A stretch of DNA of 32,000 nt, from contig NC_006138.1 in assembly GCF_000025945.1 (NCBI RefSeq), positions 60,001 through 92,000 on the forward strand, written 5' to 3'. The notes under the pieces are model-generated. The model searched no databases. It was given only the letters and a program-made list of their open reading frames with translations, and was not told where the DNA came from. Below, in pieces: positions 16,141 through 16,625 of the stretch; within the stretch, counting starts at the first letter, position 1, and each line of letters starts with the position of its first letter. Both the position numbers and the translations under genes were made by a program. This DNA comes from Desulfotalea psychrophila LSv54. GTDB lineage: Bacteria; Desulfobacterota; Desulfobulbia; Desulfobulbales; Desulfocapsaceae.

Positions 16141-16310
16141 GAAAAACAGATACGAGATGCTAGATGCTAGATGCTAGATGCTAGATGCTAGAAAAAGCAA
16201 CAGCAACAGCAACAGCAACAGCAACAGCAACAGCAACAGCAGAAAAAAAATTAACCACAGAGGTCACAGAGGACACAGAGTTTTTTTGTAAAAAGCGAAC
16301 GACGAAAAGC
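16141..16310 (+). repeat. composite mosaic element: prefix, heptads, (CAACAG)7, module A (3 units), module D
   Basis: GAAAAACAGATACGAG is followed by (ATGCTAG)x5 at 16157-16191 and (CAACAG)x7 at 16198-16239. TTAACCACAGAG is at 16251-16262, with CACAGAG at 16256, 16265 and 16274, then T7. AAAAAGCGAACGACGAAAAGC is at 16290-16310. Confidence 0.9.
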
Positions 16311-16393
16311 AGGAAGGGCAGAGGGCACAGAGGAAATTATTAAAAAAGCAACAGAGAGAGAAACAACGAGAAAAATCAAGCTATTAGCGCAAT

Positions 16394-16419
16394 CGACATT
16401 CCGATCTGCTTCACTGCTG
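16394..16419 (-). repeat. mosaic repeat, degenerate module C
   Basis: CGACATTCCGATCTGCTTCACTGCTG resembles CGCCATTCCGCGATGCTTCACTGCTC at 12901-12926. Confidence 0.55.
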
Positions 16420-16500
16420 TTTTTTAGGCTTTTCTAGCCTCTGCTCTTTCTGACAGCTGATAGCTCCAGTCTTAAAGCTGTCTTTTCTGTAGTTTATATA

Positions 16501-16625
16501 AAAAGTTTCTCTGTGTTCTCCTAAGCAGTGGTTAACATTTGCTGTTGCTGCTGTTTTTAGGTTTTTTCTAGCATCCGCCATTCCGCGGTGCTCCACTGCT
16601 CGCATCTAGTATCTGCTCTTTCTGC
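16501..16625 (-). repeat. composite mosaic element (inverted partner of 16141-16310)
   Basis: The reverse complement reads GAAAGAGCAGATACTAGATGCGA-GCAGTGGAGCACCGCGGAATGGCG-GATGCTAGAAAAAAC..CAGCAGCAACAGCAAATGTTAACCAC..CACAGAGAAACTTTT. The C core at 16576-16599 matches 20318-20341 at 24/24. Confidence 0.9.

Follow-up and report, generated by a model that had tools for sequence, protein, structure and literature searches.

What is the composite of short repeated words that lies at 16141-16625 of the window analysed here, a stretch of 32,000 nucleotides (32 kb) from Desulfotalea psychrophila LSv54, and how did it come to occupy a 735-bp intergenic region between two minus-strand genes—one for an AMP-binding acyl-CoA ligase (14258-15988), the other carrying an Lcl_C domain (16724-17662)? 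An earlier note, made from the letters alone, had described it as a tail-to-tail inverted pair of a 125-170 bp element that could extrude as a cruciform or, once transcribed, fold into a long imperfect double-stranded RNA. Drawing on the window, on relatives of D. psychrophila, and on public metagenome, viral, and plasmid collections, we confirm that 16141-16625 is a genuine back-to-back pair of oppositely oriented, rapidly evolving word mosaics, and we find the interpretation given in the earlier note to be supported in part. We lean, tentatively, towards reading the pair as a shell without an open reading frame (ORF), similar to a miniature inverted-repeat transposable element (MITE), that belongs to a family of selfish cassettes resembling intervening sequences (IVSs); such a shell would be tolerated outside coding sequence and would fold back when transcribed. 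We do so because a near-identical heptad arm 8 kb away brackets an ORF of the 23S-IVS type, and because similar arrays bracket two small-gene families, four-helix-bundle and GxxExxY, elsewhere.

Anatomy of the inverted pair

Below, -> and <- mark arms in plus and minus orientation, the head of an arm is its purine-rich end and the tail its T-run end, and letters name the modules: A for heptads, C for a 25-nt module, H for AGCTGTCAG-type words, G for GCGAAAA-type words, and I for GAGAAAAATCAAGCT. The left arm (16141-16387, plus) and the right arm (16388-16625, minus) share one module order—a CAGATAC-type prefix, AGATGCT heptads or module C, GATGCTAGAAAAA, CAACAG hexads, TTAACC-CACAGAG nonads, and a T-run—and every string that the earlier note had quoted lies where it had been placed. 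Local alignment of the left arm with the reverse complement of the right arm gave a score of 47 over 93 columns (73% identity), as against 16.7±2.5 and a maximum of 26 in 500 mononucleotide shuffles (z ~12 for the real arms); the arms are homologous. In the same alignment the heptad run and module C fill one slot with identical flanks on both sides, as had been suggested.

For comparison we used L002, a Logan contig with a NrdD 95% identical to that of the window (9678-11795) and syntenic over window positions 9.3-17.7 kb. The features of the focal region are as follows.

15989-16140, minus: unique 5' region of the acyl-CoA ligase gene, ~90% conserved with L002, without modules
16146, plus: prefix CAGATACGAGATGC, left arm
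16155-16192, plus: (AGATGCT)x5.4, left arm, found with Tandem Repeats Finder (TRF)
16184-16196, plus: GATGCTAGAAAAA, left arm
16196-16241, plus: (AGCAAC)x7.7, that is, the CAACAG hexads, left arm (TRF)
16251, plus: TTAACCACAGAG, left arm
16256-16280, plus: three CACAGAG words, (CACAGAGGA)x2.8, left arm (TRF)
16281-16287, plus: T7, left arm
After T7 and up to 16387, plus: G (AAAAAGCGAACGACGAAAAGC), a stray CACAGAG, and I (GAGAAAAATCAAGCT), left arm
16388-16499, minus: inner sub-unit of the right arm, with AGCTATCAG words and GCTAGAAAA, plus a degenerate copy of module C (16394-16417)
16500-16625, minus: outer sub-unit of the right arm, in reverse-complement order CAGATACTAGATGC, C (AGCAGTGGAGCACCGCGGAATGGCG), GATGCTAGAAAAAA, CAGCAGCAACAGCAA / CAGCAGCAACAG, ATGTTAACCAC, CACAGAG, and a T-run
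16633-16690, minus: AAAAGCAGG...CCUGCUUUUU, a terminator-like hairpin that separates the right arm from the Lcl_C-domain gene, to which it is assigned; conserved in L002

The left arm is 47% A and 12% T. Its G segment is 97% identical to the reverse complement of ~4090-4120 and its I segment recurs at 25393; as the arm extends through G and I, the two arms abut at ~16387/16388 without a spacer, and the unit size of 125-170 bp given in the earlier note proves too short, E-F-T running on into G and I.

The focal pair carries no ORF, and coding sequence was rejected as an explanation of the arrays, there being no long ORFs in those of the window. No hairpin precedes the T-run behind CACAGAG, which therefore does not qualify as an intrinsic terminator, and a scan of the focal region for promoter and terminator consensus sequences returned two weak sites only, with no excess over shuffles. 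Plausible terminators sit outside the arms, at 12680-12710 and 16633-16690; the assignment of the latter rests on its stem, U-run, and conservation, because its fold z-score is not significant. No Rfam family covers the arrays: at gathering score the window has no match (and no rRNA), in the region 15989-16723 matches at E up to 1 are at chance level, and CACAGAG hairpins at 15 other loci are likewise without a match. The window also holds no tRNA or tmRNA genes. The string TGCTCTTTCT occurs at 8442, 16442, and 16614 (plus), that is, within <- arms at three of its four occurrences in the window; its first eight nucleotides match the rrn boxA core, TGCTCTTT, and this boxA-like TGCTCTTT(CT) resemblance is too weak to build on and may be coincidence.

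A window-wide family of arms and its turnover among relatives

About 16 arm segments, together ~2,548 bp or ~8% of the window, are spread over 8 intergenic regions (from a module map and a reading of all long intergenic regions). Their vocabulary is heavily over-represented: TTAACCACAGAG, with at most one mismatch, occurs at 10 sites in the window where 0.15 are expected, and module C, with at most three mismatches, at 7 sites where 0.01 are expected. The arms are polar mosaics of tandem 7-, 6-, and 9-mers and a few unique ~25-nt modules, with pairwise identities from 73% to 97%, and nine E-F-T copies align to a consensus of an A-run, GTTAACCACAGAG, a degenerate word, CACAGAG, and TTTTTTGGTGAA. 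That the order recurs at 20318-20487 was correctly seen in the earlier note—it reads C-H-D-E-F-T there, and the shared CAACAGCAAATGTTAACCAC string is present—and, with a recurring order across polar arms, the modules are indeed not randomly shuffled. The TRF arrays (AGATGCT x5.4, AGCAAC x7.7, CACAGAGGA x2.8, ACTCTGTGG x9.8, and GCAACA x14.7) are all intergenic, and -> arms contain 45-56% A and 9-15% T.

A single orientation rule is kept by 16 of 17 segments on our reading of the map (binomial p ~1e-4): the head, a CAGATAC, AGCTGTAG, or TTAACC end, points toward the nearest gene and the T-run tail toward the middle, tails facing one another, so that intergenic regions read -> <- irrespective of gene orientation. 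Convergent inverted pairs, which had been proposed as the general form of the unit, are accordingly present in almost all of the window's long intergenic regions. The arms reach into gene ends as well. Five window genes have their stop codons inside module heads (668-670, 12413-12415, 20316-20318, 25170-25172, and 31931-33) and a sixth, gene 7019-7654, abuts a heptad arm; the TAA of TTAACC is the stop of gene 668-1636 and of nrdG, and the TAG of AGCT(A/G)TAG is that of panE, of the ABC-transporter gene ending at 31933, and of gene 24570-25172. The nrdG stop of L002 (3475-3477) also falls within a module head, head stops using the TAA of TTAACC or the TAG/TAA of AGCTGTAG / AGCTGTAAG, and the NrdG C-termini of the window and L002 differ as though modules had remodelled the 3' end. 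Beyond the focal pair and the block at 7653-8465 listed further below, the arms of the window are these.

1-58, minus: E-F-T module ACCACAGAG AACACAGAG GTTTTTTGGTGAA with AACTGCT heptads, directly downstream of a likely GxxExxY pseudogene
453-680: tail-to-tail E-F pair, 453-545 (plus) and 600-680 (minus); the right-hand GGTTAACC head holds the stop TAA of gene 668-1636 (minus)
3620-3700, plus: D'-E-F-T module, downstream of rpsU
3985-4190, minus: <- arm upstream of gene 4310, in reverse-complement order C, TAACCACAGAG with three CACAGAG, T-run, G, I-like, a second E, CAGCAG words, C'
12395-12460, plus: E-F-T module, with the nrdG stop TAA inside its TTAACC
12528-12645, minus: (ACTCTGTGG)x9.8 array facing the 12395-12460 module
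12866-12940, minus: A-C-B module directly after the fadL stop, 93% identical to 16574-16614
20311-20495, plus: -> arm of AGCTATAG (holding the panE stop), C, AGCTGTCAG, (CAACAG)x14.7, ATGTTAACCACAGAG, CACAGAG, T-run
20540-20745, minus: <- arm upstream of gene 20828, with CTCTGTG, GGTTAAC, and (TTTTCGC)x5 words
25173-25515, plus: -> mosaic filling a whole intergenic region, with E-F-T-G, (AGTAGCAGTG)x5, C', I, CAGCTGT words, G, and CAGATACGAGATGCG heptads
31926-32000, plus: -> arm of AGCTGTAG (stop of ABC-transporter gene 30125-31933), C, and AGCTGTC heptads, cut by the end of the window

One region calls for a different reading from that first given to it. The earlier note had taken 12541-12940 for a single copy interrupted by a unique insert carrying a terminator; instead, the stretch 12640-12720 that holds the terminator is an ancestral intergenic core, as its conservation (~90%) in L002 shows, and the region is better read as separate modules flanking an ancestral bidirectional terminator. 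It is the E-F-T module next to nrdG to which the (ACTCTGTGG)x9.8 array belongs, and not the A-C-B module on the fadL side; the stretch from nrdG to the conserved bidirectional terminator (~12680-12710) holds both arms of 12395-12645.

Comparison with relatives separates stable surroundings from changing arms. The ligase 5' region, the Lcl_C terminator hairpin, and the nrdG-fadL bidirectional terminator are ~90% conserved between L002 and the window, and the L002 module tracts at orthologous sites consist of other words and have other lengths: its focal region holds a -> tract of other words only, with no <- arm, and beside its terminator core stands a single CTCTGTGG word as against 9.8 tandem ACTCTGTGG copies in the window (L002 being a short-read assembly). 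In three further relatives—L003 (NrdD 85% identical), Desulfosediminicola (L124, 81%), and the Desulfotalea metagenome-assembled genome (MAG) L125 (74%)—intergenic regions are compact, and modules are absent from them. The nrdG-fadL spacing is 525 bp in the window versus 115 bp in these compact regions, and L003 has a 16-bp junction where the window has an 822-bp block (7655-8476) separating a peptidase-M50 gene from an EamA transporter gene. Since the words differ in L002 and are absent from L003, L124, and L125, the mosaics are a recent, lineage-specific, and rapidly changing addition.

The rpsU locus offers two side observations. In L003, a phage-integrase-family (XerC-like) gene (4447-5370) lies between rpsU and a DHH-CBS-CCA-enzyme gene; the same position in D. 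psychrophila is a 743-bp module-rich intergenic region, and tblastn found no remnant of the L003 integrase in the window. A hairpin without a U-run, GTTTCCAGTCCTATC...GATAGGGCTGGAAAC (3570-3610, plus), directly follows rpsU and precedes the E-F-T module, and L003 has a different hairpin there.

Small genes between arrays and a core shared across phyla

The link between the arms and small genes is seen within the window itself, in the following features.

60-431, minus: frameshifted gene of the GxxExxY / PD-(D/E)XK family (TIGR04256, PF13366), among CACAGAG modules
7653-7800, plus: -> arm starting at the stop of gene 7019-7654, with (AGATGCT)x6.4, GCTAGAAAAA, TTAAC, CAGCAG words, and a C-like GGAATGGCGAG
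7819-8178, plus: ORF for a four-helix-bundle / 23S rRNA-IVS protein (PF05635, TIGR02436), between inverted heptad arms
8180-8465: -> arm at 8180-8300 (AGATGCT/AGATACT heptads ... T-runs), then <- arm at 8300-8465 (TCTAGCA heptads)

The stretch 7653-7707 is 95% identical to focal positions 16142-16196, 8 kb away, and pairs with the <- heptads (8393-8462) in the minimum-energy fold, so that the left arm of the focal pair has a near-copy beside an IVS-type gene. The GxxExxY gene at 60-431 is frameshifted after ~38 codons and is likely a pseudogene; a frameshifted GxxExxY gene, between inverted CACAGAG arrays, is also found in contig L009.

We surveyed the flanks of both families in plasmid-collection records and the loci of this analysis, scoring TRF arrays of period 5-12 within 140 nt. 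Short tandem arrays stand at 14 of 14 four-helix-bundle flanks sampled and at 11 of 20 GxxExxY flanks, compared with 6-38% for ordinary ORFs. In L009, Bacteroides finegoldii, and Bernardetia, the GxxExxY gene has an upstream head (TTAAC or CAC) followed by CACAGAG words and, downstream, CTCTGTG words ending in GTTA, GTGA, or TTAG. In a Nostoc example, a four-helix-bundle gene has (GGGAAAA)n on one side and (CCCTTTT)n on the other, and that of a Pseudanabaena galeata plasmid (NZ_CP112875.1, 45827-47065; L137), inserted between cas6 and cas4 of a CRISPR-Cas locus, lies between (AAAAGCT)x15.6 and (AAAAGCC)x14. In Sphingomonas parapaucimobilis (NZ_CP155749.1; L129), fabD and fabG, members of a housekeeping operon, enclose a GxxExxY gene whose ATG is immediately preceded by (CGCGAAG)x3. 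The layout has a precedent in Coxiella, in which the 23S rRNA IVS comprises an S23p ORF, terminal inverted repeats whose 28-bp stem is cleaved by RNase III, and tandem GACAGAT heptamers that vary between strains (PMC4990558); the PF05635 fold is in turn Avd-like, as in diversity-generating retroelements (PMC10053308).

A one-genome-per-species scan with module C, in a collection without the source genome, returned a single match in an unrelated MAG, and blastn of the whole 485-bp element against plasmids matched the CACAGAG segment alone, in Bacteroides records. The TTAACC-(CACAGAG)n core is not confined to D. psychrophila. With the pattern TTAACCACAGAGN{2,11}CACAGAG, it was found in at least 120 metagenome contigs of GC 32-68%; the metagenome figures that follow are among the matches listed. 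A third word or an inverted partner accompanies the core in 99 of 134 matches, which are therefore not chance matches. A tail-to-tail partner lies within 250 nt of 42% of TTAACCACAGAG heads (median gap 75 nt) and a head-to-head partner accompanies 9%; heads lie a median of ~27 nt from a gene boundary, and the upstream ORF ends in the TAA of TTAACC in 7 of 59 cases. Core orientation shows no clear bias relative to crudely called ORFs.

The core is present in records of six phyla, often as tail-to-tail hairpins. Plasmid records matched by blastn came from B. finegoldii, B. ovatus, Gemmatirosa kalamazoonensis, Pseudoalteromonas, Calothrix, Nostoc, an Aphanizomenonaceae strain, and Ilyobacter. G. 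kalamazoonensis carries the core at 22-26 places per megaplasmid, including a nested inverted composite, (CCGCAGAGG)3-(CACAGAGGA)3-loop-rc-rc, which follows the same logic as the focal pair, ordered modules in an inverted pair; in B. finegoldii, arrays flank intergenic cores with terminator-like hairpins. Other taxa have sister words behind a TTNAC head: CACGAAG, CGCAAAG, CGCCAAG, and CACGGAG. At six metagenome loci (L018, L099, L100, L115, L055, and L022), CACGAAG, CGCAAAG, CGCCAAG, CACAGAT, and CAGTCAC arrays stand ahead of a CACAGAG array, several of these loci showing a TTNAC head and then C-R-C-N-R-A-G words 8-9 nt apart, a pattern that suggests a super-family of words. At a further locus (L082, 1709-1754, minus), an Acido-Lenti-1 RNA (RF01687, 40 bits) lies ~600 bp from a perfect 98-nt TTAACC-(CACAGAG)3 hairpin, whose head TAA ends the upstream ORF, putatively phosphoribosyltransferase-like, and (GAGACAC)x3 lies just upstream of the RNA.

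Viral sequences contain the same vocabulary. The core is present in at least 120 IMG/VR contigs, and (AGATGCT)n arrays in six viral contigs of GC 30-65%. In contigs of phages or prophages (e.g., L257, L248, L175, and L198, within L139-L258), the core commonly comes after an ATGA stop/start overlap and stops just short of the next ATG; it sometimes precedes (CTTAAAA)n heptads, and an in-frame reading gives LTTEDTEDTE-like peptides. Such arrays are more plausibly placed between a TGA stop and the next ATG than read as coding.

Known repeat systems and competing explanations

Set against known repeats, the mosaics of D. psychrophila behave as a hybrid of four kinds: short tandemly repeated repetitive sequences (STRRs), bacterial interspersed mosaic elements (BIMEs) or BOX elements, IVSs, and MITEs. 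BIME and BOX elements are extragenic mosaics of short motifs in conserved order, co-transcribed with their neighbours, foldable, and present in hundreds of copies per genome; BIME units alternate in orientation, and BOX has a variable internal module (boxA-boxBn-boxC). Like them, and like repetitive extragenic palindromic (REP) sequences, the arms are extragenic, tail-to-tail, and of recurring module order, over 8 intergenic regions. Their units, however, are tandem 6-9-mers, whereas a REP unit is an imperfect palindrome of 20-40 nt (~35 nt) with a conserved GTAG-type head. Sequence similarity to BIME and BOX elements is absent, and no gene for a REP-associated tyrosine transposase (RAYT, TnpA-REP) lies within the window. 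Correia elements are small, ORF-less, and intergenic, with inverted ends, and are often co-transcribed and cut by RNase III; the arms resemble these and MITEs in forming an ORF-less intergenic element with inverted ends that may abut or alter gene ends, and TTAACCACAGAG...CTCTGTGGTTAA inverted termini are found at 453-680 and, among the matches listed, in 39 complete metagenome pairs. Unlike Correia elements and MITEs, their ends are tandem arrays of variable length and no parent insertion sequence is known. For REP background, see PMC12306157.

The STRR class is matched by head-to-tail 5-11-nt units in intergenic DNA, with a copy number that varies between relatives (on the short-read L002 assembly). 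Mazel reportedly described, in 1990, a cyanobacterial STRR3 word CAACAGT, which nearly equals the CAACAG word of D. psychrophila. With STRRs, with the TAACTGA repeats of Beggiatoaceae (PMC4679880), and with the GGGAATC repeats of Xanthomonas (PMC4692102), the arrays share units of 6-9 nt, a strictly intergenic location, a patchy phylogeny, turnover of length and sequence between close relatives, and occasional convergent inverted pairs. TAACTGA repeats lie mostly one to a few nucleotides upstream of start codons, in one orientation (PMC4679880). Such reports treat words singly, unlike the present case, and contain nothing on an ordered composite, a tail-to-tail rule, or an association with genes of the four-helix-bundle or GxxExxY families.

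The closest published description is that of Geobacter metallireducens (Aklujkar et al. 2009, PMC2700814), where intergenic arrays of 3-5 tandem hepta- or octanucleotides are paired on opposite strands at variable distance and are absent from sister species. The D. psychrophila arms likewise consist of species-restricted, paired, opposite-strand short arrays, and the Geobacter word TCTCCGTS is the reverse complement of CACGGAGA, a variant of the CACAGAG word found in D. psychrophila arrays. Unlike the single-word Geobacter sites as described, the arms are multi-module, with a fixed order and a T-run tail, their heads overlap stop codons, and they bracket small ORFs. An IVS layout, finally, is seen at 7645-8470, where terminal inverted repeats enclose a PF05635 ORF with tandem heptamers beside it, and IVS elements are likewise regarded as selfish (PMC4990558). 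The focal pair differs in having no ORF and in having long multi-word mosaics for arms rather than a clean 28-bp stem, and the elements of the window lie between protein-coding genes, not in 23S rRNA helix 25 or 45.

On the empty-shell reading that we tentatively favour, insertion or recombination at the ends of genes would disperse the arms, replication slippage would lengthen or shorten them, and they would be tolerated because they lie outside coding sequence and, once transcribed, fold back. RNase III would probably trim the resulting long, imperfect hairpin, by analogy with rRNA intervening sequences; consequences for neighbouring genes, for instance protection of 3' ends or insulation of one transcription unit from another, would come second. 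Our data show the anatomy of the arms, their over-representation, the tail-to-tail rule, the fast lineage-specific turnover, the occurrence of the TTAACC-(CACAGAG)n core across phyla, and the association of small ORFs with arrays; that the arms move, are transcribed, are processed by RNase III, or benefit the host we infer. The focal pair does fold far better than shuffled sequence: as plus-strand RNA, 16141-16625 reaches -168.6 kcal/mol (z = -6.55), with z = -4.04 for the minus strand, z = -4.65 as DNA, and z = -7.5 as RNA when the arms are shuffled separately. Shuffled in that last way, 453-680 gives z = -4.4, 12395-12940 z = -2.8, and 20311-20745 z = -1.8. Individual arms, being purine-rich direct repeats, have no internal complementarity, and pairing needs oppositely oriented arms.

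A number of results count against this reading or narrow it. The long double-stranded fold foreseen in the earlier note stands for the focal pair, which beats its shuffles, and fails at two other regions it had named: under whole-region shuffles, RNA of 3620-4190 (z = -1.1) and 20311-20760 (z = -1.6) is not significant. In a cofold matrix of all -> against all <- arms, cognate partners pair no better than arms from other regions, so complementarity is a general consequence of one vocabulary being used in both orientations; with two other pairs non-significant as well, the hairpin is not demonstrably selected. The models thus describe a focal pair able to fold back strongly, with no sign that its particular duplex is specifically maintained. 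The mosaic 25173-25515 has no inverted <- partner. Inspected IMG/VR copies sit between phage genes, and as the core there is mostly a singleton, with a partner in 14 of the 130 matches listed, a hairpin is not its universal mode of action. No transposase was found and no mobilising enzyme identified; the candidate ORF-bearing relatives of the arms encode a four-helix-bundle or a GxxExxY PD-(D/E)XK protein, neither of them a known transposase. No consistent target-site duplication appears in the 14-nt flanks of the 39 complete TTAACC...GGTTAA pairs, several of which have flanks that extend the palindrome; a TTAA or TA duplication could hide inside the head. By jackhmmer, a four-helix-bundle or GxxExxY gene is present in only 3 of the 120 CACAGAG-core contigs listed, so the ORF link is visible from the ORF side only, and the small-ORF cargo inside longer-range pairs of these contigs is mostly ordinary genes. 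The D. psychrophila evidence comes from 32 kb of its genome, and array lengths in the short-read L002 assembly are possibly collapsed.

The same observations invite a bolder proposal: that tandem-word arrays, in inverted or direct pairs, are the ends of an unrecognised cross-phylum class of selfish elements, whose ORF-bearing forms encode a four-helix-bundle (S23p/Avd-like) protein or a GxxExxY PD-(D/E)XK nuclease that recognises or cuts the arrays; that IVSs, STRRs, the Geobacter sites, and these mosaics are one system; and that ORF-less shells proliferated explosively in D. psychrophila. We consider this possible, though doubtful.

A regulatory explanation, which we judge unlikely, would make the arrays double-stranded DNA sites for a nucleoid-associated or global regulator—IHF/HU, or a pentameric four-helix-bundle protein—whose oligomers bridge inverted arrays and so loop or insulate the DNA. 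The symmetry around intergenic cores whatever the gene orientation, the 6-9 bp periodicity of the words, the arrays beside every four-helix-bundle gene sampled, and the word shared with Geobacter all suit such a role, and the paired Geobacter sites were themselves attributed to unidentified global regulators, possibly IHF/HU (PMC2700814). A conserved regulon, however, would hardly have words and copy numbers wholly different in a relative with 95% NrdD identity and absent at 74-85%; word spacing of 8 or 9 nt in arrays of 2-15 copies fits a fixed protein register poorly, and the neighbouring genes have no common function.

More improbable still, in our estimate, is that the arrays serve in untranslated regions as single-stranded RNA platforms for proteins of the S1, Csp, CsrA, or Hfq type, or as standby or enhancer sites through which translation or mRNA stability is adjusted. 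The A-rich, U-poor -> arms are expected to be unstructured, and CACAGAGGA contains GAGG/GGA. (AAC AGC)n is a perfect (ARN)n register, the Hfq distal-face motif. Single arrays stand between stop codon and next start in phage contigs, a reversed head lies just upstream of a Shine-Dalgarno sequence and ATG in metagenome contigs (e.g., L076 and L073), and such a role was proposed for the Beggiatoaceae TAACTGA repeats (MacGregor 2015, PMC4679880). Yet one element yields CACAGAG in 3' regions and CUCUGUG in 5' regions, for which a single RNA-binding specificity is insufficient; there is no clear sense bias relative to crudely called ORFs, the residues completing GGA or the Shine-Dalgarno sequence are variable spacer positions, and rapid turnover between close relatives speaks against conserved regulation.

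We give very little credence to the view that there is no element at all, only independent slippage-prone simple repeats in slack intergenic DNA whose order and inversion are coincidental. Slippage does account for perfect tandem repeats (100% matches) and a copy number of 9.8 versus 1 between relatives, and high-turnover intergenic heptamers are known from Xanthomonas, Nostoc, and Beggiatoaceae (PMC4692102, PMC4679880). It does not account for non-repetitive modules (C, GATGCTAGAAAAA, E-F-T-G, I) that recur with the arrays in the same order, for arms aligning at z ~12 over shuffles, for the tail-to-tail rule, or for an identical 12+7-nt core with inverted partners in genomes of GC 32-68%; the module-order and over-representation statistics largely refute it. 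Scarcely any weight, finally, goes to the selected device of the earlier note, a cruciform or long double-stranded RNA regulating flanking genes via RNase III, for which the strongly negative fold z-scores of the focal region and the excision of IVS stems (PMC4990558) speak. Against it, non-cognate arms pair as well or better, the other window pairs are not significant, the duplex is not conserved even in L002 with its -> tract and no <- arm, and the imperfect match between the arms (~73%, with indels), together with the distance between their best-matching segments (>190 bp), makes cruciform extrusion unlikely.

Reports of intergenic heptamer or STRR-type repeats go back to 1990 and come from cyanobacteria, Beggiatoaceae, Xanthomonas, and Geobacter, with no consensus on origin or function. 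Literature searches by sequence string returned unrelated primer matches only, those on D. psychrophila repeats nothing beyond a generic REP count, and we found no description of an ordered multi-word mosaic, a tail-to-tail rule, a cross-phylum TTAACC-(CACAGAG)n core, or PF05635 genes systematically flanked by arrays. What is new here is that the words are organised as ordered, polar, tail-to-tail mosaics; that the TTAACC-(CACAGAG)n word family is common to several phyla and phage contigs; and that arrays stand systematically beside two enigmatic multi-copy small genes, the S23p/Avd-like four-helix-bundle gene and the GxxExxY nuclease-fold gene. Because the arrays supply stop codons, split operons, and fill ~8% of the region, they affect gene calling, assembly, and operon prediction. 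If the links hold genome-wide, several orphan repeat phenomena would become one mobile-element problem, and the S23p/Avd-like and GxxExxY proteins would gain candidate nucleic-acid targets.

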